Assembly: GCA_964510585.1 (NCBI GenBank)
Contig: CAZECW010000018.1
Span: forward strand, 1 to 32,000
Source of the DNA: an uncultured archaeon
Lineage (GTDB): Archaea > Asgardarchaeota > Jordiarchaeia > Jordiarchaeales > Jordiarchaeaceae
Reading direction: 5' to 3'
Length of the DNA stretch: 32,000 bases
Positions 13,236 through 27,947 of this stretch are shown one piece after another (position 1 is the first letter of the stretch; every line of letters begins with the position of its first letter). The notes under the pieces were generated by a model that saw only the letters and a list, made by a program, of their open reading frames with translations, had not been told where the DNA came from and did not search any database. Both the position numbers and the translations under genes were made by a program.

Positions 13236-14597
13236 CTAAAAATTTTCTGCGCCTACTTGGAATATTTGGTAAGCTCTGTAGGGTTCTCGGTCGGTTATCT
13301 CTCCACACAGGTTGGTGGTCATTTGTTCATATATTTCCTTCATATTTTTTGTGTGTCCTAATACGTAGATTAGTTTTACATAGGCGGTTTCGGGCAACAT
13401 GTTTTTGCAAGGAATAACTCCAATTTTAAGTAGGTCTCTTCCCCGTTCATACACGTTCATACCTACGAATCCAAAGAGGCACTGGGAAGTCATGGCTACA
13501 GGAATATCTTCCTCCACTGCCCTTTTTAAAGGTTCTATAATTGTTTTGGGACAGTGCCCCAAACCGGTTCCTGCTAAAACAATCCCATGATATTTTAAGT
13601 CTATGAGTTTATGAATAATATCTCCATCCATTCCGGGATAAGTGTATATCAGCGCCACTCTGGGGTCAAGTTGGGTGTCTAATTTAACTTCGCCTTTCTT
13701 AACTCTTTTCCTGTAATCATTTCTAATTATTTTTATTTCATTATCCTTCACCAAACCTATGGGAATATCTGCAATTGTACGAAAAGCATCCCGTCTGCTG
13801 GTGTGCATCTTTCTAACTCTGGTGCCTCTATGAATCAAGTTATAGTCGTCGCTGCTACTTCCATGCATACATACAACTACCTCAGCTATATCGCTAAACG
13901 CAGCCACTCTGGCCGCAGAGATTAAATTTATCGCCGCATCACTTGAGGGCCGGTCACTGCTCCTCTGGCTGCCAACTAGAACTACTGGAACTGGCAAATC
14001 ATTTAACATAAATGACAGGGCTGAAGAGGTGAAATGCATAGTATCAGTACCGTGGGGAATGATGACTCCGTCCGCACCTGAGTTTATCTCTTCAGCAACA
14101 GTTTCCGCGATTTTTATCCAGTTGTTCGGTGTCATATCTTCTGAAAATATTTCGAATAAGAGTTTTGTTTTCAGATTGCAGATTTCTGCAAGTTCGGGAA
14201 CCGCACTAAAAAGCTCTTGTGGAGTAAAAGCGGGAATAACAGCTCCGGTTCTGTAATCGAGTCTGCTCGCCACAGTTCCGCCAGTGCCAATCAGAGAGAC
14301 TTTGGGTTTCTTGGGATCAAACTCAACTTGTATTTCGGGAATGGCGTAAAGTCCTGGCTTGTAGCCTAATTCTTTAATTTTTGTGTCTTCTGTGACTCTC
14401 ACACCTATATTGTATCCAGTATCTAGTTTGAGGACTAGGTGCTTATCATCACCCATATCACTTCTTGGGAGTAGTATCCCTCGGTATGTTGCTTCGGGGG
14501 TAATTACTTCGATTTCGCTCCAAATTCTAACTTTAGCGGTCTCAAGTTTTTTCCTAACAAATCCCCAGTATCCTTGCAGCTCCTCCTTTACCGTCAT
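13236..14597 (-). CDS. gatD: Glu-tRNA(Gln) amidotransferase subunit D
   Basis: TGGTVASRLDYRTG, HGTDTM, GSQRSSDRPSSD and RKMHTSRRDAF motifs; ATG overlaps the gatE stop. Confidence 0.97.
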   Translation of the reverse strand: MTVKEELQGYWGFVRKKLETAKVRIWSEIEVITPEATYRGILLPRSDMGDDKHLVLKLDTGYNIGVRVTEDTKIKELGYKPGLYAIPEIQVEFDPKKPKVSLIGTGGTVASRLDYRTGAVIPAFTPQELFSAVPELAEICNLKTKLLFEIFSEDMTPNNWIKIAETVAEEINSGADGVIIPHGTDTMHFTSSALSFMLNDLPVPVVLVGSQRSSDRPSSDAAINLISAARVAAFSDIAEVVVCMHGSSSDDYNLIHRGTRVRKMHTSRRDAFRTIADIPIGLVKDNEIKIIRNDYRKRVKKGEVKLDTQLDPRVALIYTYPGMDGDIIHKLIDLKYHGIVLAGTGLGHCPKTIIEPLKRAVEEDIPVAMTSQCLFGFVGMNVYERGRDLLKIGVIPCKNMLPETAYVKLIYVLGHTKNMKEIYEQMTTNLCGEITDREPYRAYQIFQVGAENF

Positions 14598-16534
14598 TGT
14601 TTTCCCTCCAATATTTTTACTATTTTTTTACGGAGAACTTCAGCCACTACTTTTCCGTCAATTTTGCCTCTTACCTTTTCCATCACTTTGCCCATCATGG
14701 GACTAAACGCCCTATCCCCACTTTTTTCTATAAAGTCCCTGCTTTCATAGAGCATCTCGTCGATTATTTTTTCAAGTTTCTCAACTGTAATGGTTTCCAA
14801 CCCTAATTCTTTAAGGGCGTCACTGACACTAATTGAGGGGGATTTCGCTAGTTCTTGTAGAATGTTTTCCACTGCTTCTTTTGCTATTTTTCCTTCTGAT
14901 AGAAATTTGAAAACATCTTTAATTTTTTCTTCGGAGATATTGTCTGTTCGGAAGCCCTCCCTCTCCAGAGATTTCATGGTTTGAAGCAAGGTTACAACAA
15001 CAATTGTTGGATCTATTTTGTATTTCTCGACGATATCCATAAACAATTCCATTTTCCCTGACGCCATTAATTCTTCTACGAACTCTTCTTTTATCTTGTA
15101 CTTTTCAGCAAGGCGTTTCTGAGCCACCCAAGGATATTCAGGTAACCTCTTACTAATTGCTGCAACCCTTTCCTTTTCTATGACCAATGGGGGGGTATCT
15201 GTATCGGGATATAAACGCGCCCCGCCATGTAACTCTCTTAAAAATTCACTGTTACCATTTTCTAACGCTCTCCTAGTTTCCCTCATCACGCCCTTCAGGG
15301 CGCCCTTAGCCCTATCAACAACATTCTCCAAGGCCTTTTCCGCCGTGTCCGCATCACCTATAACGATTGCGTAAGCATCCATTTCCCCCAGTGCAAGAAG
15401 ATCACGTATCTGGGAGTTCTCCTCCGCACTGATGTTATATTTGCTGAGGTTTTCATCAGAGTGAATGATGCCTTTTAAACCAGTGATTATCATAACTTTC
15501 TCTGCTATTTCTTTTCCAAAACTCTTCCCTGGCTGAATCTCTTTAGATAAAAGTCCCGCGAATTTTGGAAGTTTTACCGCTAATACGGTTTCATTAGCCT
15601 TCCTATTTTTGATAATCTTACATTTGGTGGAGGCGAAAATCTGGGAAACATCTTTAAAATCTTTAGAGAAGTCCGTTTCCTTCACACCACGATTCAACAA
15701 CTGATTCTTAATATCAATTAGTGCAAGTTGTCTCAGTACTTCATTCTCAGCCAGTTTAGGTATCCAATCCAATTTTTGTACTCCTTTAATTTCCACACGC
15801 TCTCCGCCCTCTATACTCACATTTAAATCCTGCCTAATGGTTCCGAGCCCCCTCTTAACCTTCCCTGTCGCCCTGAGAAGCATTCCTATCCTGTAAGCTA
15901 CTTTGAGAAGCTCTTCTGGATTTTTAATTTCAGGCGCCGTAACAACTTCAACCAGAGGTATACCTAATCTATCAACCCTGTAATAAACAGTGCTTTGCTC
16001 CTCACGGATTTTCCTAGCCGCATCCTCCTCTATACAAATAGTAGCTACTCCAACCTTCCTACCATTAATTGGAATGTAGCCCTCTGTTCCAATAATTAAT
16101 GTACGCTGAAATCCACAAGGAACTGACCCGTCAAGATAATTTTTGCGAAGGACATGTAACTCGTCTATAATCTTTGCATTAAACAATAGGGCAATTTCTA
16201 TACCTATATCTATTGCTTCCTGAGATATGCTAAAAGGAGGAGTTTAATGCTTGTATGCGTCCTACATACAAGTTTCATCTATCTCGTAAGTACAATTAAC
16301 ATCATCAAATCCTTCATAAACAATTGTACGCCCCTTTTCATACTCAACAAGCATTGCTTCGTCATACTTACCCATCTCGCCCAAAACAGGTCTAAAGAAT
16401 CTTTTAACCAGAAACTGTGGTTCATCGGTCTTCAGAACAGGTTTACAGAAGCAAAAAAGTTTGCGACTGGTTAAAAGCTCCTGGTGAATCTCGATCCCGG
16501 CCTTGAATCCCAGTTTATCATAGTCGAGTTGTAT
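14594..16534 (-). CDS. gatE: Glu-tRNA(Gln) amidotransferase subunit E, interrupted by a 30-nt BHB-type intron (exons 16274-16534 and 14594-16243; 636 aa if spliced)
   Basis: GIEIHQEL, RKNYLDGS..GFQRT, DRLGIPLVE, GLGTIRQDLNVSI and RLYPDTD motifs; removing 16244-16273 gives CTYEIDE-TPPF; start probably ATA at 16534 behind GGAGGTG (alternatives ATG 16549, TTG 16564). Confidence 0.92.
16244..16273 (-). other. 30-nt BHB-type intron in gatE
   Basis: GAUG/CAUU 4-bp helix, AAA at both cut sites, 8-bp CUUGUAUG/CAUACAAG intron stem, in-frame TAG and TAA. Confidence 0.85.
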
Positions 16535-16722
16535 TGCGACCACCTCCATTTTTGGAGTTTTCAAATTATTAGTAGATTATAGCAATATTAATAATACCCT
16601 TTACCTCATAAGAATGTATCATTCTAAAAACATTTTCCTTAGAAAAATTCAAAGTATTTATAACTAATTTTGTAACTTAGTCAAATTAACACTCTAACTA
16701 TCAGCCAAGGTGATAAAAATTC

Positions 16723-18330
16723 TTGAAGACACCAGAACCCTCTCAAACATGGAAAACGGCAGCTTACAGCGAAATAATTAAGCAAATTCTAAATAATAGG
16801 GAAAAAGGCTTAGAGCTAAACATATTGAAAAAAAGGGTTTGCCAAAAGTACCACCTAAATAAGGTTCCCAGTAACTCAGAAATTCTCAGTTACGCCTCGG
16901 AACAGGAAAGACAACTTTTACTACCTTTACTTCAAAAAAAGAAGGTACGTACAATTTCAGGTATTGCAGTAGTAGCGGTAATGTCCAAGCCTGCTCCCTG
17001 TCCCGGCAAATGCATCTACTGTCCGGGTGGTACTATTGCACCAAAGTCCTACTCGGGACAAGAGCCTGCAGCCATGAGAGCTATTCAAAATAACTTTGAC
17101 CCCTACTTACAAGTGAAATCCCGGCTTGAACAGCTAAAAGCCATAGGCCACAAAGTGGACAGGGGAAAAATTAAGCTAATAGTGATGGGAGGAACTTTTC
17201 TCTCTCTCCCACAAGACTATCAACACTATTTTGTACGTAGATGCCTTGAAGCAATAACTGGCGTCCCCTCTGAAACTTTGGAGGAAGCAAAAAGAAATGC
17301 TGAGCATTCCCGCATAAGAAATATAGGAATAACCTTCGAGACCCGACCCGATTATTGTAGAGAAGAAAATGTTGATAATATGCTTAACATGGGTGGCACC
17401 CAAGTTGAGATAGGTGTTCAAACAGTTTATGATGATATTTACAAGCTTGTTAACAGGGGCCACACAGTACAAGAGGTGGTGAAGGCCTTCAGGATAGCTA
17501 AAGATGCAGGCCTTAAAGTAACAGCACACTTAATGCCAAATCTCCCGGGAACCAATTATGAGAGAGATTTGGATATGTTTAAAACGGTTTTTAATGATCC
17601 GAGGTTCAAGCCAGACGGCCTCAAGATATATCCCTGCTTGGTGCTTAAAGATACACCTCTCTATGATTTATATCTTAAAGGGGAGTATAGCCCTTACCCC
17701 ACGGAAGACGTTATCAAGCTCATTGCTGAAGTCAAAAGAATAATTCCAAAATGGATCCGTATCCAACGTATTCAAAGGGATATCCCCTCAAAATTAATTG
17801 TCTCAGGTGTAAAGAGCGGTAATCTAAGAGAACTAGTTGCTGACGAGCTAACCAGAAGAGGATATAAGTGCCAGTGCATTAGATGCAGAGAAGTGGGCCA
17901 TATATTAAGAAAAAATAATAATATTTTAGATGTGGACGAGGTAGTTTTGCACACTGAGAGGTACTCCGCTTCTGAAGGCGAAGAAGTTTTCATATCCTAC
18001 GAAGATAAAGATAGAAATATTTTAGTTGGATTTTTAAGACTCCGCCGCCCCTCACCTTTAGCCCATAGGCCAGAGATTCAGAATTGTGAATCAATGATTA
18101 TTAGAGAATTACACGTCTACGGTCCACTAGTGCCCGTCCGTGAAAAACCAAATGATGAGTGGCAACACCGAGGATACGGCAAAAGGTTACTTAGTTTAGC
18201 AGAAAAAATTGCTAGGGAGGAATATGATGCCAAAAAGATTCTAGTCCTCTCCGGCATAGGCGTTAAAGAGTACTATTATAAACTAGGATACAAACCAGAC
18301 GGAGTCTACGTTTCAAAAATGTTAAATTAA
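16723..18330 (+). CDS. elp3: tRNA uridine(34) acetyltransferase Elp3 (radical SAM plus GNAT)
   Basis: CPGKCIYCPG, MGGTF, ETRPD, KIYPCLV, RELHVYG and WQHRGYG motifs; TTG start behind GGTGA. Confidence 0.96.
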   Translation: MKTPEPSQTWKTAAYSEIIKQILNNREKGLELNILKKRVCQKYHLNKVPSNSEILSYASEQERQLLLPLLQKKKVRTISGIAVVAVMSKPAPCPGKCIYCPGGTIAPKSYSGQEPAAMRAIQNNFDPYLQVKSRLEQLKAIGHKVDRGKIKLIVMGGTFLSLPQDYQHYFVRRCLEAITGVPSETLEEAKRNAEHSRIRNIGITFETRPDYCREENVDNMLNMGGTQVEIGVQTVYDDIYKLVNRGHTVQEVVKAFRIAKDAGLKVTAHLMPNLPGTNYERDLDMFKTVFNDPRFKPDGLKIYPCLVLKDTPLYDLYLKGEYSPYPTEDVIKLIAEVKRIIPKWIRIQRIQRDIPSKLIVSGVKSGNLRELVADELTRRGYKCQCIRCREVGHILRKNNNILDVDEVVLHTERYSASEGEEVFISYEDKDRNILVGFLRLRRPSPLAHRPEIQNCESMIIRELHVYGPLVPVREKPNDEWQHRGYGKRLLSLAEKIAREEYDAKKILVLSGIGVKEYYYKLGYKPDGVYVSKMLN

Positions 18331-18455
18331 ACCGCTCCATTTTCTTTAGAGAACTCTCTGCAAAAACTTATCTTAGTATCTTTGCTTTACATTAGATCTT
18401 CAGGGGAAAGGTTCTTCTACCCAATTTTTCACTGTGCAGCAGGTAAAGAAGGTAT

Positions 18456-18824
18456 TCACTTTAGCTCAGACACTTTTTTCGCTATGTCATTAATCAAGTC
18501 CTTCGCGTTTCCCGGATCAATTATACTTGCAGCCGCAGAGGGAACATCTATACCTGCGGCAATGCCAATCTGTTCTTTGCTGTGAACATATACATAGGGA
18601 ATTTTCTTTTCCTCACATAGCAATGGCAAATGTGCTACTACTTCGGGAGGATCTACATCCTCCGCCAGAATAACTAATTTAGCTTGCCCACGTTCAATGG
18701 TCTTAGTCGTCTCATTTGTGCCCTTTTTAATCTTACCGGTATCACGCGCAATCTCCAATGCTTGCAAAGCCTTTTTAACCAGTTCTTCTGGAACTTGGAA
18801 TCTCACATAAAAGGGCTTCGACAA
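18456..18824 (-). CDS. rpl7ae: Ribosomal / K-turn-binding protein L7Ae (eL8)
   Basis: [29 protein letters not shown] motifs; TTG start behind GGAGG. Confidence 0.98.
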
Positions 18825-18832
18825 CAGTCATT

Positions 18833-18868
18833 CCTCCTTCAGGCAGCGCCCTCATCATATGGTGGGGC
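18833..18868 (-). promoter_or_regulatory. Candidate K-turn (box C/D-like) in the rpl7ae 5' UTR
   Basis: AUGAUGA (18852-18858) and CUGA (18839-18842) lie immediately before the GGAGG ribosome-binding site (18833-18837). Confidence 0.6.
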
Positions 18869-18998
18869 TTCGCTTTTTTTGATTTTTAATGAGAAACAAG
18901 TTAACATACTTGGCTTATGAAATTTTTGGTTCAGGAGCATTTTTCACAAACTTAGGTTGAACCGCATCCCTTATTCAGTTGATTTTTCTCAGAAATAG

Positions 18999-19514
18999 TT
19001 AATCAGATAGGAATTTAAGAACCTCGTTAAATGCAATTTTAAACCACACAGTATATTTTTCGGGATGTTTTTCCACATTTTTTTTAAGGGTTTTCACATT
19101 CACCCATTTATAATCTTCTGCCTCCATTGGATTTACTTCAACTTTTCCATCATAATTACCAACAAAAACATGATCAAACTCATATTCCGTAAGATTATGA
19201 TCAAGATTAGCCTTATATATAAAAGCGAATATTTTTTTCAAATCACAATCAAAGCCCATTTCTTCTTTTAGTCTTCTATGAGCAGCTTGTTCCGTGTCTT
19301 CGCCGGGTCTCGGATGACTACAACAGGTATTTGACCACAGACCACCAGAATGATATTTACTTTTAGCCCGTTTTTGGAGAAGAGTTTCCCCCTTGGAGTT
19401 GAAAACAAATATGGAAAAAGCGCGGTGTAATCTCCCTTCTTCGTGTATTCTCATCTTTTCCCCAGTACCTATCTCGTTATCATTCTGATCCACAAGGATT
19501 ACCATTTCACTCAT
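18999..19514 (-). CDS. idi: Type 1 (Nudix-fold) isopentenyl-diphosphate delta-isomerase
   Basis: LHRAFSIFVFN, LLQKRA..KYHSGGLWSNTCCSHP, RRLKEEMG and EYEFDHVF motifs. Confidence 0.95.
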   Translation of the reverse strand: MSEMVILVDQNDNEIGTGEKMRIHEEGRLHRAFSIFVFNSKGETLLQKRAKSKYHSGGLWSNTCCSHPRPGEDTEQAAHRRLKEEMGFDCDLKKIFAFIYKANLDHNLTEYEFDHVFVGNYDGKVEVNPMEAEDYKWVNVKTLKKNVEKHPEKYTVWFKIAFNEVLKFLSD

Positions 19515-19699
19515 ACACCTTGCCTCCTACACACCTACACTTTTCTAAACCATTCTTTGATTATGGGGAGAAGTTTTACTGCTAAAATGTATTTTATTAT
19601 TTTTGAATCTTGTTATTTCATCATTATCTTGTTTTAAATCTCTCTTTTTGTTTACCTCAAGCCTTTGCTTGCAAGCCTTAAATCATGAGATAATTTAAC

Positions 19700-20506
19700 T
19701 CATCTCCGGTTGCATATAAGTGTTCCTAAATCCTGTTTGCCAAGTAGAGATTGGAGGATGTAACCATCCCTTTTTGCATTAATAATTTCTATTTGAATTC
19801 CTTTTTGAGCTAAGGGCAAGATCTCTAATATTTTACGATGCATGCCTCCCGTAACATCGGTTGTTTTGGATCCCGAAATGTTTTGTAGGGTTTTTTCGAT
19901 GTTATCTGTAGTAATTGAACGGATTAATACCGCGTTTCTATTTGTGTTGGGATCAGAATCAAATACTCCATCCACATCGGTTCCAAAAACCACACGTTTA
20001 ACATTTAAGTTCTGTGCCAAAAATGCCACGATGTGGTCGCCGGATAATATACTGTGACCTTGTTTTTCATCAAAAACAGCATCACCCCACAGCACCGGTA
20101 TACAACCCATATCCAGAGCAAATTTCACAGTTTTAGTATAAATTTCTGATATTTTACCACCGCTCTGAATAGAAATTGCGGAGGGTTGTAGCGGTATGGC
20201 AGGCAATCCCAGGCTTTGTAGCTCCTCTACAAGTATAAAATTTAGTTTACGCATAACCTGAATGGTTTTAGTGAACCCAAATATTTGGTTCCTAGACTTT
20301 AAACCCAGATGAATATTGTACTTATTTGCAATCCTATGTCCGAACGACCCCCCTCCATGAACTAGAACTATTTTCAAATCAGGACTCTGTTTCAAGGCGC
20401 TCTCAATTTCTCTACTAATTCTCCTAATGGTTTTAAAATCAGCTTGCATCTCCCTATCTTTTTTTGTAATAACGCTACCACCCAACTTAAGTATAACAAC
20501 ACTCAT
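19700..20506 (-). CDS. ipk: Isopentenyl phosphate kinase
   Basis: KLGGSVIT, VHGGGSFGH, SGDHI, GTDVDGV and DVTGGM motifs; ATG at 20506 behind GGAGAGG. Confidence 0.93.
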   Translation of the reverse strand: MSVVILKLGGSVITKKDREMQADFKTIRRISREIESALKQSPDLKIVLVHGGGSFGHRIANKYNIHLGLKSRNQIFGFTKTIQVMRKLNFILVEELQSLGLPAIPLQPSAISIQSGGKISEIYTKTVKFALDMGCIPVLWGDAVFDEKQGHSILSGDHIVAFLAQNLNVKRVVFGTDVDGVFDSDPNTNRNAVLIRSITTDNIEKTLQNISGSKTTDVTGGMHRKILEILPLAQKGIQIEIINAKRDGYILQSLLGKQDLGTLICNRR

Positions 20507-20620
20507 CAAAACCTCTCCCTGAAACAATTATTTTCTATTCAGCACACCTAATTGACGAAGATATTTCTGACTCCAAAATAATTGTAGCAAGTAAACTATC
20601 CTTATTTTATACAGATATTT

Positions 20621-21581
20621 CTATTCTACTTTTACTCCCTGCTGTGAAAAGTTGGTAATAATGGGTTTACCTCCCGCTTTTAGTATAGCATCCGCTATTT
20701 GTTTCTGTTTATCTTCTGAGGAAAGAGCGATCATACAGCCTCCTCCGCCCGCGCCTGTTAACTTTGCGCCATACGCTCCATTCTCTCTAGCGGCATTTAT
20801 TAGTTTGTTAAGCTCAAAAGTGGATACTCCAATTGCTTCTAGCAATCCCTGGTTTATGTCCATTAATTCTCCAAGTGCGCGAAAATCATTCTTGTCTAAA
20901 AGTTTTAGGCCTTCCATAACAATGAGCCCGATCGATTTAATAATTGGCTTCATTATTTTTTCTTGCCTTTGCTTTCTTAATCTCACCCTTCCAACCCATT
21001 CTGCAGTGCTCCTTTTTATACCTGAGTCCCCAATCACAAGGGGAATTTCGGCTTTTATTTTAACCTGCTTCATATTTCCCTTCTCGTAAAGTATTGCGCC
21101 ACCATAGGTTGCAATTGTGTTGTCGATCCCAGAAGGGGTTCCATGGACGGTTTTTTCAGCTCCAAAGGCTATACTTGAAATTTCAGAGTTTGACAGATCT
21201 AGGTCCAGACAAGCATTCATAGCCGCGGCAGTAGCTACAGAAACCGCCGCAGAAGAACCCAACCCAGCGCCTGGAGGTATCTCTGATTTTATTGAAATAT
21301 CGAAGCCTTTATGTAAGCTAGTTAGAGAAGAAATCTCCTTGCAAACGGTCCATACTGGTTTGAAAATTTGGGGTAAATGGGGAGGAGGGTGACTTTTATC
21401 AATTTTAAACTTTGCCGCCTGATCATATTCCTTTGAGTAAACTCGAGATATTTTCTCGTCACTCAAATTAACAGATACATAAACACGTTTATCTATAGAA
21501 GCCACTAAAGCGGGCTCACCGTAGACAACAGCATGTTCACCGAAAAAAAATAACCTTTCCGGGTGCAGAGGCGGTCACCAT
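20621..21581 (-). CDS. mvk: Mevalonate kinase, with a +1 frameshift in a T8 run near the 5' end (error or real)
   Basis: MVTASAPGKVI then, after deleting one T, FFGEHAVVYGEPA; PPGAGLGSSAA, HGTPSGID and KLTGAGGGG GHMP motifs. Confidence 0.9.
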
Positions 21582-21666
21582 GTTTAACACACCCATAATT
21601 AGACGTCGCAAGCCTTCTAAAAATTGTTACTATTCAATTAAAATTTAAAATAATAATCAGCACTCA

Positions 21667-22278
21667 TCACTGTCTCCTAACTTTGGCTTCAAATTCTTCT
21701 ACAGAAACGGGTAGCTGCCCGTCGGGTGGAATTTCTCCTCTCTCCCTGAGAACTTGCCGGGCTAATAGCCAGTATATTAGAGAGAGAGCTCTACGCCCCT
21801 TGTTATTGCTTGGAATAACCAAATCAATATTCTCAGTAGAATTATCGGTATCGCATAAAGCAACAACTGGAATTCTAGCTTTGGCTGCCTCACTCAATGC
21901 CTGTGAATCAGCCCTAGGATCAGTAAGCATTATAACATCTGGCTCAATATATCTGTCGAAAGACGGATTAGTGAATGTTCCCGGAATGAATCTTCCCGCA
22001 ATTGTATTAGCATGAATTATGCTGCTAAACTTGCGTACTGGTCTTTGACCATACTGTCTAGCTGACACGACGGCTATTCGGGCAGGTTCAAATCTCGCTA
22101 AAAAGCGACCGCCAATTCTTATTCTCTCATCTGTTTTTCGGATGTCGAGAACATAAAGTCCATCAGACCTTACTCGGTAGATGAAGGGCTCCATGCTCTT
22201 CGTTTTGACCTGAGTTCCAATATGGACACCCGCAGCTAGATACTTATCCAATGGGATTAGCAGTTCCGGCTCAGACAT
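21667..22278 (-). CDS. rps2: 30S ribosomal protein uS2
   Basis: [20 protein letters not shown] and NNKGRRAL motifs. Confidence 0.98.
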
Positions 22279-22353
22279 TACTTAACACGCTCTAAATCGT
22301 GATTTGATTTTGATGTCTAGTCAAATAAATTTTAAACCTAAAAATTTTGTGGA

Positions 22354-22554
22354 TTAGGTATGTTGACTAAAGGGAATTACATCATCAATCAGATTAACAT
22401 GACTTAGTAACATACGTCTACAACAATACCTTGTAAGTCCCATACTAGTTAAAACGGCATCGGGCGGCTCTCCTTGTCTTACTCTCCTAAGAAACTCTTC
22501 CCATTTGTCTCCTACCACTTTTCCACATGTAAAGCATCTTATGGGTATTATCAT
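22354..22554 (-). CDS. rpoN: RNA polymerase subunit N (Rpo10)
   Basis: [11 protein letters not shown]...[11 protein letters not shown]; ATG at 22554 behind GGTGA. Confidence 0.97.
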
Positions 22555-22697
22555 AAATCCAATCACCATTAAAAATTTAGGAATACTGACTTTCCCAAGT
22601 ACACAAGATTATATATAGCTTACCACATTAACATTATTTGGTTGATAAGCGAATAAATATGAGACCTCCATAATTTCCTCATCCCAGGGTGGACTGG

Positions 22698-23108
22698 TTA
22701 CCTATAACTTTTCTGTTCTTTTGCTCGGGCGCCCCTTCCTCCAGGTTTCTTAGGTTCCTTCCGTCTTGGGTCTGAAACTAGAATTTTTCTATCATACTCT
22801 AAAAGTTTTTGTCTTATTTGAGGGTCATCGAAATATTGAGTTAAGGCCTTCGAGATGGAGGTTCTAGCTGCTTCCGCTTGGCTAATCACTCCTCCACCCT
22901 TCACAGTAACATCTATGTCAACTTTATTATATAAATCAGGGCCTACAAGGAGTAAGGGTTCCAGTACCTTTTGGCTAGCTAGAAGCGGTTGCATTAGATT
23001 AATGGGGATGTTATTAACTCTAATTTTTCCCGTACCAGGTTTTAAGACCGCCCTAGCTATTGCATTTTTTCTTTTTCCACTTGTTAATATTACTACTTTT
23101 TTACTCAA
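22698..23108 (-). CDS. rps9: 30S ribosomal protein uS9
   Basis: GKRKNAIARA, GGGVISQAEA and DPRRKEPKKPGG motifs; TTG start. Confidence 0.98.
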   Translation of the reverse strand: MSKKVVILTSGKRKNAIARAVLKPGTGKIRVNNIPINLMQPLLASQKVLEPLLLVGPDLYNKVDIDVTVKGGGVISQAEAARTSISKALTQYFDDPQIRQKLLEYDRKILVSDPRRKEPKKPGGRGARAKEQKSYR

Positions 23109-23124
23109 TATTATTCCTCCAAGA

Positions 23125-23664
23125 TTAGATTCTGTCAGATGGAGGTACCCATCCTATTTCTCTGGAAAGTGTTTCTACTGTGATGTAGCTAGAGTCCGTT
23201 TTTTTGACATGTGCATCAGTAATTGTTTGAGCGGAAACTTGGCTGTAAAATTCAGGAGTTCCTATGTAAACTCTCAGACGCTTATAGGCTGCTTTTCCTT
23301 TAGGTTTCTTCCAAGGGAGCATGCCCCGAATGGTACGTTTAACTATCCTATCGGGTCTACGATAATGAAAAGGCCCCTTCCAAGGAGCGGTATGTGTTCT
23401 GATTTCTAATCTCGATTTATATTTAGATATGACTGCGCTTCTCTTGCCAGTAATTACCGCTTTCTCAGCATTAATAATCGCTATTTTTTCGCCTCTCAGC
23501 AGGCGATTGGCAACCACACTCGCTAACCTTCCAAGAATTAGGTTAGTAGCATCAATTACCGCTAAATTTTCGATTGGCAAATAGTCTCTGTTCTTCTTTT
23601 CCTTTGGTTTCTTTATCGTTTCTTCCAATTTGGCCTCTTTTCCCTCTTCTGACATTTCGCTCAC
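23125..23664 (-). CDS. rpl13: 50S ribosomal protein uL13 with a charged N-terminal extension
   Basis: IDATNLILGRLAS, INAEKAVITG and RTIRGMLP motifs; start either GTG 23664 or ATG 23655. Confidence 0.96.
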   Translation of the reverse strand: MSEMSEEGKEAKLEETIKKPKEKKNRDYLPIENLAVIDATNLILGRLASVVANRLLRGEKIAIINAEKAVITGKRSAVISKYKSRLEIRTHTAPWKGPFHYRRPDRIVKRTIRGMLPWKKPKGKAAYKRLRVYIGTPEFYSQVSAQTITDAHVKKTDSSYITVETLSREIGWVPPSDRI

Positions 23665-23668
23665 TCAT

Positions 23669-24034
23669 CTATTTGATTATTTTCACCTTAGTACCGGAAG
23701 GGTTTCTTTTAATGAGCTCTTGAATGGTTATGCATTCCCCTCCGGATTTTTTAGTTTTGTTGACAGCCTCTTCAGAGAAGGATAATGCTGCTATGCAAAC
23801 CTTATGTTCTAGCTCTCCTGAACCTAAAACCTTTCCAGGCACTAGAACTGTATCATCATTGACGGTGTGTCTATTAATTTGGGACAAGTTTACAGAGGTT
23901 CTGTTCCTTCTAGGTTTTCTTAACTCTTCTGAGACTCTTTTCCATATCTTACTTTTCTCTGATTTTGATTTTTTCTCGAGTTCAACTATTAATTTCCAAA
24001 TTTCGGGATTTGTGGGTCCTGTTGTTTTAGGCAA
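23669..24034 (-). CDS. rpl18e: 50S ribosomal protein eL18
   Basis: TGPTNP, VNLSQINR and VPGKVLGSG motifs; TTG at 24034 behind GGAGG (tracked ORF is over-extended). Confidence 0.96.
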   Translation of the reverse strand: MPKTTGPTNPEIWKLIVELEKKSKSEKSKIWKRVSEELRKPRRNRTSVNLSQINRHTVNDDTVLVPGKVLGSGELEHKVCIAALSFSEEAVNKTKKSGGECITIQELIKRNPSGTKVKIIK

Positions 24035-24083
24035 CTTTAGGCCTCCGCTTTTTATTGTATCTTTCAAAGCAAATATGGGCTTT

Positions 24084-24878
24084 TTAGGCGAGCAGTGATT
24101 GAAGTTGTTTAACCTTTTTCTCAAATATCTCTACAGCAGTTTCTACAATTTTTTCTGGAGGGAGAGCACCAGTAGATTCGATACTAAATATGAAGGAGGA
24201 GTCATCCGCATCAACGTGAATGGCGTCAAATTCACATTTTTCTTCGCATGACTTACACAGAGAACAATTTAAAACATCCTTAATCACTATTGATTTATTT
24301 TTCAGATCCAAAACACCCTTTGGGCAAATTGTTACGCATTCACCACAAGCTTCACATTTATCTCCCTCAAGTTGTACAATGGGCTTGTACTTGTAAGCAC
24401 ATGTAGAAACCGGTTGGTATTTTGCATGGTCTTTACCTTGACCGAGAGAAGCGTAAGCTTCCAGCACTATACGTTGCCCCCGAGCCAAACGAACAATTGG
24501 GATTTTATCACTAACGGGAACCACTGAGGGATCTTGAGATTTCAAGTCTCCAGAATAAACCGTCACACCCTCTTCTTCCGCCTCCCTCTCAAGCGTGAAA
24601 GTTAGCTGACACTGTGTGCAACCAGCTCCCTGACAACTGCATTCTTCCGGTAAAACATAATTCTCTAAATCGGTCTTAAGAGGAATGAGACCCAAACGGT
24701 GTGCAAGAATTTCATCAAATAGAGGAGACGTATTCTCAATAATAATGACTTCTTCGATAGCCATAGTTGGCACTTCGGCTAAGATAATACGCCTTAAGGC
24801 ATTGGCAAACGCTACATCAACATTTTCAAGCAGGAACCTTAGATTATTCGTGTCCTTAGATAATATTCGTATATTCAT
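24084..24878 (-). CDS. rpoD: RNA polymerase subunit D (Rpo3) with a ferredoxin-like domain
   Basis: FANALRR, DEILAHRLGLIPL and HAKYQP motifs; two CxxCxxCxxxC motifs. Confidence 0.97.
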   Translation of the reverse strand: MNIRILSKDTNNLRFLLENVDVAFANALRRIILAEVPTMAIEEVIIIENTSPLFDEILAHRLGLIPLKTDLENYVLPEECSCQGAGCTQCQLTFTLEREAEEEGVTVYSGDLKSQDPSVVPVSDKIPIVRLARGQRIVLEAYASLGQGKDHAKYQPVSTCAYKYKPIVQLEGDKCEACGECVTICPKGVLDLKNKSIVIKDVLNCSLCKSCEEKCEFDAIHVDADDSSFIFSIESTGALPPEKIVETAVEIFEKKVKQLQSLLA

Positions 24879-25018
24879 AATCACACCAACGAGCTACGTC
24901 AAAGTTGAATAAAAATGATGCTCAACCTTAGCAAGCATGAGTAAACAACATATGAAATTATAATATAAAGGTACTTGGTCTACACTTAAGATCTCGAGCT
25001 GAAATAAATAACTAATTT

Positions 25019-25420
25019 TTAGACCCTCCGACCACGTCGACCTCCTGGTCTACGTGTGCCGTCATGTGGATACGGAGTTACCTCTTCGATTCGCCCAATT
25101 CTCAATCCAGCCCTAGCCAAGGCACGTATTGCTGCTTGAGCTCCCGGCCCCGGTGTTTTGGGACCATGTCCACCTGGTGCTCTGACATAAATGTGTATTG
25201 CTGTGATACCCTTATCCATAGCTGCTTGCGCTGCTCTGTAAGCTGCTTGCATAGCAGCGTAGGGGGAGGACTCGTCCCGATCAGCTTTTACAATCATACC
25301 TCCTGAGTAACGCGCAATTGTTTCAGCACCGGAAATGTCCGTTATGTGAACTATGGTATCATTATAAGAGGAGTATATGCGAGCAATACCCCAATGAGGT
25401 TTTTTGGATTTTTCACTCAT
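25019..25420 (-). CDS. rps11: 30S ribosomal protein uS11
   Basis: [11 protein letters not shown] and [19 protein letters not shown] motifs. Confidence 0.98.
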
Positions 25421-25446
25421 TTTTCATTCCCCTCAATTCAAATATA

Positions 25447-25983
25447 TTATCCTTCAACTTTAGTTTTGACGCGTTCAGGATGGTTGGGGTCGCTTAGCGG
25501 TGAAGAAGGAGCGAAGGACACCAAAGTCTCTTCCTCTCTAGTTACTAAGTATCCCGGCGAAGTTACGCGTCTATTATCTATTGCTATGTGTCCATGTGTT
25601 ATAAGTTGCCTTGCATGATAAATGGATTTGGACAACCCCAACTTATTAACTATAGTCTGTAACCGCCTACCTAATATGTCCTCAATGTTAAGTTTGAGAA
25701 CGTCATCCAAGGAAGCTTCATGATTTAGTATCCCTAAACGGTTAAGTCTTCCCACCAATAATTTTCTTGATTTTTCTTGTTCCTCGTCGGGAAGAGCGAG
25801 GCAGCGTCTAGCTTGATCCCTAAAGTTGCTAAGCATAGTGCTTGCTCGCCATATCTCTCTCTTATTTCTTAAACCATACTTACCTATGAGAATTAGTTCA
25901 CTGTGGATTCTATCCTTCTGGAAAGGATGCCTTGGAGTCTTGTACTTCTTTCTATGTCTTTTGGGATCACCCGTTTCAATCAC
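25447..25983 (-). CDS. rps4: 30S ribosomal protein uS4; true start may be ACG at 25974
   Basis: GDPKRHRKKYKTP, YGLRNKREIW and ARQLITHGHI motifs. Confidence 0.97.
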   Translation of the reverse strand: MIETGDPKRHRKKYKTPRHPFQKDRIHSELILIGKYGLRNKREIWRASTMLSNFRDQARRCLALPDEEQEKSRKLLVGRLNRLGILNHEASLDDVLKLNIEDILGRRLQTIVNKLGLSKSIYHARQLITHGHIAIDNRRVTSPGYLVTREEETLVSFAPSSPLSDPNHPERVKTKVEG

Positions 25984-25990
25984 CTCAAGT

Positions 25991-26443
25991 CTACTTTTTC
26001 TTTCTCCTTACACCCACGGTTTGACCTTTACGTCCCGTAGTTTTGGTGTGCTGTCCTCTTACCTTGAGTCCTAAGGCGTGACGTATGCCCCTGTAACTCT
26101 TCATTTTTCTCATATCATCAATGTCGGTTTTAATGGCTAAAGTGAGATCTGAACCAGTGAGATGTAAATATTCACCTGAACTTATGTCCTTTTGTCGATT
26201 AACCATCCATTTGGGAATGCCATATTTTACGGGGTTAGCTAAAACCTCCTCAATTTTTCTAACATCTTGATCCGAAATAAACCCCATTCTAATGTTAGGA
26301 TCAAGCCCAACAACCCGTATTATGGACTCCGCTAACCTGATACCCACTCCTTTAATTCCAGTCAAAGCGTAGGCTAGCTTTTTTGAACCGTCCAAATCTG
26401 TACCAGCAACTCGAACAAGATAACGGTACTCTTCCGACGACAA
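25991..26443 (-). CDS. rps13: 30S ribosomal protein uS13
   Basis: LTGIKGVG and YRGIRHALGLKVRGQHTKTTGR motifs; TTG start. Confidence 0.98.
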   Translation of the reverse strand: MSSEEYRYLVRVAGTDLDGSKKLAYALTGIKGVGIRLAESIIRVVGLDPNIRMGFISDQDVRKIEEVLANPVKYGIPKWMVNRQKDISSGEYLHLTGSDLTLAIKTDIDDMRKMKSYRGIRHALGLKVRGQHTKTTGRKGQTVGVRRKKK

Positions 26444-26648
26444 TTGTAAACACTCCTTATTAGGGAATCAAAAACAACAAAACACCAAATAAACTTTACG
26501 TACAGCATTTAACAGCAAAAAACAGTAAAACCAATAAAAAAATAAATATATCGCCCATTTTCACAGAAAACAAATAAATATTCTAAGAACTCTAAACTAA
26601 AAGGTAGCTAAAATTCACAAAAATTGAGAAAAATGTTAAAATGAAGAT

Positions 26649-26821
26649 GCCGGGGTAACCAAGTGGATCACGTTATAGGCGTACAAAAACGGTGCAGATA
26701 CTTACTAGTGTAGTTAGCACAAGCCTGGAGAATATCCTAGTAAGCCTGTGGTCCGAAAGGATCGCGCGAGTTCGAAAGGAAAATATTTATTATTTACCCG
26801 AGTGTCTCGCCCCCGGCGCCA
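26649..26821 (+). tRNA. tRNA-Ser(GGA) with four BHB-type introns (26670-26687, 26698-26722, 26731-26742, 26777-26804); 90 nt mature, encoded CCA
   Basis: Acceptor stem GCCGGGG/CCCCGGC, G73 and CCA; after removing the four segments: D stem ACC/GGU, anticodon arm CAGGC-CUGGAGA-GCCUG, long variable arm, T arm GCGAG-UUCGAAU-CUCGC. Confidence 0.9.
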
Positions 26822-26896
26822 ATAACTACCCTTTTCAGTGGCCGGAACATATTTTGACTTGTTAAAACTAGGTAGGAATAACTGGATTTTGGATGC

Positions 26897-27947
26897 TTAT
26901 TCCTCAGCTTCCTCGCTTCTGTCGTGTTTTTTCCACATAGGAGGGTAGGTTCCCGGCTCCATTAAGACACGGTTTATTTCCACTGCAACCCCGTGGTTTG
27001 AGGTGTACATTTCTTGACTGCTCATTTTTGCTATTCCCAATGCTACAGCTTCATTTTTAAGCGTGAAGATTGAAACTAGATCACCAGCTTTTATTTCGCT
27101 CTCTAGTTTAACTATTCCAGGAGCGGTTAGATTTGCACCGTGACAAAGAGAATCTACGGCAGAGTCTCGTATAAAAATTTTAGGTATATGCTCCAGTGCA
27201 TTTTCCATTGGTTGTATAATTTTTCTTAGGAATGATTCGTCTCCATCTTCCTTCCAGAAATGGTAAGCATCAACGAGGTCGTATAGGTTTGTTATAGTAT
27301 CTTCTTTGAAAGGCCCTGTTCGGGTGCGTCTGAGTTCTCTCATATGGGCGCCACAACCTAAAACCTCGCCGATGTCGTGGCAGAGCTTCCTTATGTAGGT
27401 GCCGGCCTCACAACCAACACGCAGGAGCCCATTTCTACCCTCTACTTCGTTTAGTTCAATATAGTATATTTCCCTAATCCTCACCCTCCTTTTAACCGAG
27501 GAGCGGAGCGGTGGACGCTGATAAATTTGTCCCGCAAACTCGTTTACAACTTCTCTCAATCTACTTTCAGACACATCCCCGTGCAGCCGAATTACACAAA
27601 CATACTCTTTCCCAGCCGGAAGGAGAGCTTGAACTACTTTAGTTGCAGATTCTAAAGCCACAGGAAGCACACCTGTGACTTTGGGATTTCACTGCCTCCT
27701 ATGCTTCTGAAGGAAGCTCTAGTGTCCCAGCGTGGCCTGCCTTCTTAACATTCAAGATTTTTTTGACCCAGCTAACCACTTCATGTGAAGTGGGACCCGG
27801 AGGCTTGTCAATATTGACTATCCCGTTTTTTATATAATCTTCTATTTGACGTTCGTTGGGTGGAGTTCCATACTCCGGATTAGTGACCACGTTAGCCTTC
27901 TGGAGCATCTCTCTTTTCTTGTCGCTGGGTAAAAAACGCTCGACCAT
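26897..27947 (-). CDS. cbf5: H/ACA pseudouridine synthase Cbf5, interrupted by a 31-nt BHB intron (exons 27719-27947 and 26897-27687; 339 aa if spliced)
   Basis: [11 protein letters not shown]; [15 protein letters not shown] restored by splicing; [16 protein letters not shown] and PUA domain. Confidence 0.95.
27688..27718 (-). other. 31-nt canonical BHB intron in cbf5
   Basis: GGGA/UCCC exon helix, CACU/AGUG central helix, AGA and AAA bulges, GCUUCCU/AGGAGGC intron stem. Confidence 0.93.

Follow-up and report, generated by a model that had tools for sequence, protein, structure and literature searches.

Bulge-helix-bulge introns in gatE, cbf5 and a tRNA-Ser gene of an Asgard archaeon

Interrupted genes in the window

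We analysed a window of 32,000 nucleotides (nt), positions 1 to 32,000 of contig CAZECW010000018.1 (C18), from a metagenome-assembled genome (MAG; GCA_964510585.1; 3.78 Mb, 96% complete) of an uncultured Asgard archaeon of the Freyarchaeia/Jordarchaeales. The Cbf5 protein encoded there is 98% identical to proteins from records named Candidatus Freyarchaeota or Jordarchaeia, and the public runs that contain DNA of the window are hot-spring metagenomes. Three genes, gatE, cbf5 and a gene for tRNA-Ser, are interrupted by six short inserts. A sequence-only reading of the window had described these as introns of the bulge-helix-bulge (BHB) kind; folds, protein domains and ARAGORN all agree with the six interruptions and their places. 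The features, in window coordinates, are as follows.

14594..16243, minus strand: gatE exon 2, starts TPPFSISQEAIDIG and runs to the stop codon; overlaps the start of gatD
16244..16273, minus strand: gatE mRNA BHB intron, 30 nt (sequence, minimum free energy (MFE) fold, same site in 11 genomes, covariation)
16274..16564, minus strand: gatE exon 1, about 97 codons, ends ...CTYEIDE (from the list of open reading frames)
26649..26821, plus strand: pre-tRNA-Ser(GGA) with four inserts and encoded CCA, antisense to its neighbours; G73
26669..26689 or 26670-26687, plus strand: D-loop insert, about 18-21 nt; borders uncertain, BHB degenerate
26698..26722, plus strand: intron 29/30, 25 nt, central helix GUGC/GCAC (sequence; forms in the MFE fold)
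26731..26742, plus strand: intron 37/38 (canonical position), 12 nt, hBH-loop type, central helix CUGG/CUAG; present in orthologues
26777..26804, plus strand: intron 59/60 in the T-loop, 28 nt, full hBHBh′ in the MFE fold
26897..27687, minus strand: cbf5 exon 2, with the remainder of TruB_N, TruB_C_2 and PUA
27688..27718, minus strand: cbf5 mRNA BHB intron, 31 nt (hBHBh′ fold; RNA contigs; same site in TACK and Asgard archaea)
27719..27947, minus strand: cbf5 exon 1, DKCLD domain, ends ...GHAGTL plus the G of an Asp codon

The BHB is found in the MFE folds of the gatE, cbf5 and tRNA 59/60 introns, and by reading the sequence at 29/30 and 37/38. Five of the inserts begin with A and follow the rule of a cut after two bulge nucleotides that had been proposed for all six; the D-loop insert, with at most three of four central pairs, does not. 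As a BHB-like motif that also fuses two open frames is not rare by chance (real and decoy scans of the genome were equally productive), the case for introns rests on covariation, on RNA contigs and on homology that continues across the junctions.

The cbf5 intron

The cbf5 intron (AGCTTCC...AGTGAA) shifts the reading frame and includes a TAG. Its 5′ cut separates the first base of the catalytic Asp codon of GTLD|P from the other two, and excision restores the frame. DKCLD lies in exon 1 and positions 17-149 of the TruB_N profile in exon 2 (Pfam); without excision, the upstream open reading frame (ORF) is 27947-27699 on the minus strand. The MFE fold is a full strict hBHBh′ (z = -2.7), in which UGGGA/UCCCA is the outer and CACU/AGUG the central helix, the bulges are AG|A and AA|A, and the intron stem has 7 bp.

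Evidence at the RNA level came from assembled Logan contigs of public runs. RNA-Seq contigs from two metatranscriptomes of different studies join position 27686 to 27718. The contig from run X24 is 243 nt long with 0 mismatches to the window, and that from run X23 has a depth of 16.7. The intron is retained in two DNA-like runs. Because RNA contigs from two studies skip exactly 31 nt, we conclude that the cbf5 intron is spliced in vivo.

Among 80 related loci, cbf5 is interrupted at the identical position in 30, with identical borders; these belong to Thermoprotei, Bathyarchaeia, Methanomethylicota, Jordarchaeia, Freyarchaeota, Atabeyarchaeum and the Asgard MAG LC30. Six more lack an intact motif and could not be assigned to either state, and cbf5 is uninterrupted in the Baldr-, Hermod- and euryarchaeal loci. 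Covariation links the central helix to the Thr codon: the pair is CACT/AGTG here and CCCT/GGGG in TACK archaea.

An intron in the crenarchaeal cbf5 pre-mRNA was reportedly described by Watanabe in 2002 and by Yoshinari in 2006. A 2009 study found it in Desulfurococcales and Sulfolobales and not in Pyrodictiaceae (PMC2738675). The intron described here lies in the same gene at the same nucleotide position (CTAG|A...AA|ATCC), with cuts after the second bulge base, a host that has a hetero-oligomeric tRNA splicing endonuclease (EndA) and a spliced RNA form (Yokobori 2009, PMC2738675). It differs in that the host is an Asgard archaeon and that the motif is a strict hBHBh′, whereas most crenarchaeal cbf5 motifs were termed unconventional (PMC2738675). 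No published report of a cbf5 intron in Asgard archaea was found in our literature search; the intron is of a known kind in a new host. Judged from the loci compared, its spread appears wider than the 2009 study describes. The GTLD|P intron was also seen in a Pyrodictiaceae MAG and in Bathyarchaeia, Methanomethylicota and Culexmicrobium, at loci L012-L014, L020, L025, L026, L028, L032, L033, L048-L050, L053, L057, L059, L067, L071, L074 and L081.

The gatE intron

The gatE intron (ACTTG...ATTAA) contains TAG and TAA in frame. Two ORFs, 16564-16262 and 16186-14594, are the two portions of GatE: excision of 16273-16244 fuses ...CTYEIDE with TPPFSISQEAIDIG, and on read-through a single GatB_N domain over residues 21-467 crosses the junction (Pfam). 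The MFE fold (z = -2.8) has the HBh′ form, without an outer helix: GAUG/CAUU makes up the central helix, each strand has the 3-nt bulge AA|A, and the intron stem is 9 bp long.

A search of 41 genomes found the gatE frame broken near residue ~100 in all six genomes of the same genus and all five others of the same order, and open over 620-696 amino acids in most other Asgard families. The inserts of the order measure 29, 30, 31 or 35 nt, so that not all are multiples of 3, and every one contains stops. Covariation was assessed on an alignment of 10 sequences, with 500 shuffles and slid registers as controls. In this alignment 97.5% of cells pair, with compensatory changes in 7 of the 12 BHB pairs. 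This degree of pairing was reached by 0 of 500 shuffles, and slid registers pair at 12-53%. One covarying pair joins the synonymous third base of an Asp codon (GAT/GAC) to an intron base. Our literature search found no published description of this intron, which is a newly recognised and well supported case of a BHB mRNA intron. In a Thermoprotei genome that bears the cbf5 intron, gatE is uninterrupted.

A different gatE intron, of 41 or 35 nt, was seen in two complete Atabeyarchaeia-like genomes of another family and in the Asgard MAG LC30 (loci L115, about 760-805; L116; and L127, about 1770-1810). Its central helix is AGGC/GCCY (Y = T or C); the bulge is AG|A at the 5′ cut and either AG|A or AA|A at the 3′ cut. 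Its site is inside the Asp codon, 5 nt upstream of that in Jordarchaeales, and it shares a stem CAGCAACU/AGUUGYUG. Either an intron was gained a second time almost at the same place, or the border has shifted.

Four inserts in the tRNA-Ser(GGA) gene

Neither ARAGORN nor Rfam called a tRNA in the raw window, because the four inserts hide the tRNA-Ser gene. ARAGORN reported tRNA-Ser(gga) for every version from which all four had been removed, and none where the D-loop insert was left in place. The T-loop intron folds as a BHB with z of about -2.7. The central helix at 29/30 covaries, GTGC/GCAC here against GCGC/GCGT in an orthologue.

The D-loop spans 30 nt and must therefore contain an insert of about 18-21 nt. 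The best registers, TGGA/TACA and GTGG/GTAC, each give three of four central pairs; as none gives more, the borders are left as two alternatives. Orthologues of this insert in two more distant genomes lie at the same place and have perfect central helices, GTGG/CCGC and GTGG/CCAC, with cuts at AAGTGGTA| and AA|C. The D-stem itself covaries, ACC/GGT here against GCC/GGC in orthologues. An alternative D-loop intron at tRNA positions 29-45, whose CGTT/AACG helix is perfect, was rejected because its removal would take away GGT, the covarying strand of the D-stem. A minus-strand reading of the tRNA was rejected too, since the T-arm, acceptor stem, G73 and CCA fit the plus strand only. The T-loop (59/60) intron was seen only in the closest genomes and is absent from the two more distant orthologues (L008, L009), and is therefore a recent gain.

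Non-canonical and multiple tRNA introns of Thermoproteales are said to have been described by Sugahara in 2008. The inserts at 29/30, 37/38, 59/60 and in the D-loop resemble those of Thermoproteales and of Atabeyarchaeia and Freyarchaeia, in which several occur per gene and weak D-arm motifs escape tRNA finders (PMC11291895; bioRxiv 10.64898/2026.10.13.758758). There is no essential difference from these published introns, and four per gene is below the maximum of five inserts reported for the group (bioRxiv 10.64898/2026.10.13.758758). The tRNA intron richness of the group is thus already published.

Splicing enzymes of the source genome

Two paralogous EndA genes were found in the source genome, on contigs C157 and C126. 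The C157 protein most closely resembles the catalytic subunit of Aeropyrum pernix EndA (E = 3e-45) and keeps the Tyr, His and Lys (alignment to 3P1Z_B); its Crenarchaea-specific loop, GQPLGIRKPKSPQFTRPL, aligns with A. pernix GQPLDVEKPRGADFEGPL. The C126 protein has Thr at the position of the catalytic His125 of Methanocaldococcus jannaschii. From its sequence the enzyme is of the (alpha-beta)2 type, with two paralogues and the Crenarchaea-specific loop, and is predicted to have broad specificity, in line with the heteromeric EndA anticipated by the sequence-only reading. Enzymes of this type cut relaxed motifs (PMC5829648, PMC3241643).

One gene for the ligase RtcB was found, and it is itself interrupted.

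C58:3762-3791 (locus L118/L204): rtcB BHB-type intron, 30 nt, with an in-frame TGA, between ...LPD and AHQGYGFPIG

As the only rtcB found carries a TGA-bearing intron, the ligase mRNA would need the ligase for its own maturation.

Introns elsewhere in the genome

Only 9 tRNAs were called by ARAGORN across the whole 96%-complete genome. This is consistent with the published figure of 92-95% of tRNA genes with introns in the group (PMC11291895).

Scans of the genome for BHB motifs that fuse two ORFs were made in three versions. Decoy bulge sizes yielded as many matches as the real sizes, and true introns with a stem mismatch (ahcY, rtcB) were missed. Such a scan is powerless for counting mRNA introns, and it was therefore replaced by a homology screen, in which the ORFs of a whole intron-poor Asgard genome (1.42 Mb), a relative with uninterrupted gatE, were compared with the source genome and the matches checked with Pfam. 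At least 12 mRNA introns with good BHBs were verified in this way, gatE and cbf5 included. About five of the 12 are in genes of translation or RNA, rtcB among them, six are in metabolic or protein-repair genes (ahcY, ppsA, pcm and the oxidoreductase, aconitase-family and AIRS-family genes) and the twelfth is in alba. In addition to gatE, cbf5 and rtcB, the following genes have an intron of 29-33 nt inside a conserved motif, confirmed by Pfam or by an orthologue across the junction.

C4:20568-20597: ahcY intron
C4:22120-22149: tyrS intron
C73:5717-5685: rpl44e intron
C20:52144-52173: alba intron
C72:43828-43796: intron in the gene for an oxidoreductase alpha subunit (POR_N)
C56:9205-9233: ppsA intron
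C187:67020-67051: pcm intron
C181:4188-4156: intron in an aconitase-family gene (LeuC/HacA type)
C193:53626-53655: intron in an AIRS-family gene

Probable introns were found in moaE, a small zinc-ribbon protein gene and a conserved protein gene on C180.

C180:1146-1173 (L122): 28-nt BHB-like insert; protein of about 457 amino acids, N-terminus ...DLHIHSKYSRATS, no Pfam match

The orthologue of the C180 protein in the reference Asgard genome aligns on either side of the insert. Verified and probable introns together measure 25-33 nt, and 13 of the 15 begin with A. A candidate in a TPR-protein gene on C99 was rejected as it was without Pfam support, and matches on C19, C3, C165, C171, C35 and C140:167xx were rejected for lack of a convincing BHB.

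The homology screen found the window genes other than gatE and cbf5 uninterrupted, as had been noted from the sequence, and a high intron load of the lineage, likewise proposed there, is borne out by the tRNA and mRNA counts. The six window introns show no likeness in sequence beyond chance, either among themselves or with other parts of the genome. For 15 introns over 3.8 Mb we calculate about 0.6 close pairs, and 2 were seen. Two interrupted mRNAs within 11.5 kb are therefore about what scatter would give now and then.

Constitutive or regulated splicing

We favour the reading that all six inserts are archaeal BHB introns, removed at the RNA level, probably constitutively, and part of a largely neutral, lineage-wide build-up; we put its probability at about 0.8. 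The exon-intron junctions would fold into two 3-nt bulges flanking a 4-bp helix, the (alpha-beta)2 EndA would cut after the second bulge nucleotide on each strand and RtcB would then ligate the exons, giving full-length GatE and Cbf5 mRNAs and a normal tRNA-Ser(GGA) of 87-90 nt. The motifs, their conservation and covariation, the presence of the enzyme genes and the splicing of cbf5 in RNA support this directly. We infer that EndA and RtcB are the enzymes at work and that gatE and the four tRNA inserts are spliced as well. Stop codons occur in both mRNA introns, each of which interrupts a conserved motif (TAG and TAA in gatE; TAG, within GTLDP, in cbf5), as the sequence-only reading had stated, so that unspliced transcripts give only truncated protein; production of GatE and Cbf5 therefore depends on splicing. 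Processing is most likely constitutive and would be unregulated. The introns would form part of a largely neutral accumulation that takes in tRNAs, other RNAs and at least a dozen mRNAs, and are probably retained where conserved exon sequence keeps the motif cleavable. Several observations weigh against this reading. RNA evidence of splicing was obtained for cbf5 and not for gatE or the four tRNA inserts: the stretch 14600-24500 had no RNA run listed for it, and neither the gatE intron nor tRNA-Ser is covered by the RNA runs compared. The spliced contig in X23 comes from a relative rather than with certainty from the source strain. Logan contigs give no ratios of spliced to unspliced RNA. The 29/30 intron of tRNA-Ser folds no better than shuffles, and the D-loop insert lacks a proper BHB in the source genome.

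The mRNA interruptions might instead stem from faulty assembly, mark pseudogenes in decay or be places of translational bypass or recoding, and the stop codons in both inserts, the in-frame length of the gatE insert (30 nt) and the want of direct RNA evidence for gatE would be compatible with this. However, public runs and genomes that were assembled independently contain the same inserts, the flanking codons are under purifying selection while insert lengths differ by non-multiples of 3, and the insert helices are kept by compensatory changes. The source genome has a single match each to the gatE and cbf5 queries, and cbf5 RNA is found without the insert. Such explanations are largely refuted and hardly credible. 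For the D-loop insert of tRNA-Ser, cleavage by EndA is less secure: the insert might be excised through a relaxed motif once the other introns have gone, it might leave by another route, or the gene copy might be defective. No register gives four central pairs, and in a 2026 census the canonical motif was present in only about a third of D-arm insertions (bioRxiv 10.64898/2026.10.13.758758). Against this, the orthologous insert at the same place has a perfect central helix, the D-stem covariation argues for a functional tRNA, and (alpha-beta)2 EndAs cut relaxed motifs (PMC3241643). We consider it unlikely that this insert is anything other than an EndA-cleaved intron.

The sequence-only reading had further proposed a valve loosely like that of HAC1/XBP1, in which EndA and RtcB capacity sets how much of the tRNA- and RNA-maturation enzymes is made. 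The strict dependence of protein output on splicing, through stops and split catalytic motifs, is in keeping with this, as are the interrupted genes with a place in tRNA biology (gatE, cbf5, tyrS, rtcB), the self-dependence of the only rtcB found, with its in-frame TGA, and the effect of removing a 5′ untranslated region (UTR) BHB intron on expression of Haloferax HVO_1309 (PMC7714728). However, the enrichment in tRNA- and RNA-maturation genes that the proposal implied is not supported: half of the 12 verified mRNA introns are in metabolic or protein-repair genes, and by a rough estimate of our own about 5 of 12 in translation does not significantly exceed the share of roughly one fifth among conserved archaeal genes. 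The intron sequences are mutually unrelated. The cbf5 RNA contigs contain the spliced form only, a weak point since contigs drop minor forms. We know of no sensor or regulated nuclease associated with EndA. Splicing-gated control of this kind is unsupported, dependence on splicing being common to metabolic genes, and we regard it as very unlikely; the regulatory idea is the weakest part of the account. Neutral spread had been offered as equally possible; neutral accumulation fits better than regulation. The window introns thus belong to a genome-wide load that also affects metabolic genes, and nothing yet indicates a special control of RNA maturation.

Unconventional splicing of HAC1/XBP1 is carried out by Ire1 together with tRNA ligase or RtcB. 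The likeness to the window introns lies in cleavage at RNA stem-loops by proteins alone, without a spliceosome, in subsequent joining by a tRNA ligase, and in an intron that blocks the full protein. The nuclease there is the stress-activated sensor Ire1 and not EndA, and regulation defines that system; the motifs of the window introns are those of EndA. Another comparison is the 5′UTR intron of Haloferax volcanii HVO_1309, the other archaeal mRNA case in the literature searched, in which an mRNA is cut by the tRNA splicing endonuclease and expression depends on intron removal (PMC7714728). That intron lies in a UTR and not in a coding frame, and the Haloferax EndA is homodimeric and strict. 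For coding regions, our literature search found BHB introns documented for one archaeal gene, cbf5, in Crenarchaeota only.

An Asgard archaeon with RNA evidence for a cbf5 intron, a new gatE intron and at least ten others in its genome extends this range. In at least two Asgard classes the tRNA machinery seems to splice mRNAs as a matter of routine, and genes that bear such introns will be broken up or cut short by gene callers. The origin and persistence of BHB mRNA introns become testable, with a second gatE intron 5 nt away in another class. A broader reading is that in Jordarchaeales/Freyarchaeia splicing capacity is a global post-transcriptional checkpoint over a dozen or more housekeeping mRNAs, with a self-reinforcing RtcB loop, and an early form of obligatory mRNA splicing in archaeal relatives of eukaryotes. 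If true, it would cover the mRNAs of the only RtcB, two tRNA-charging enzymes, a ribosomal protein and enzymes of central metabolism; we consider it unlikely.

Between the rpoN-like gene and rps9 of the window, the 144 nt at 22556-22699 are replaced by 34 other letters in a relative (run X15), and this spacer is thus variable.

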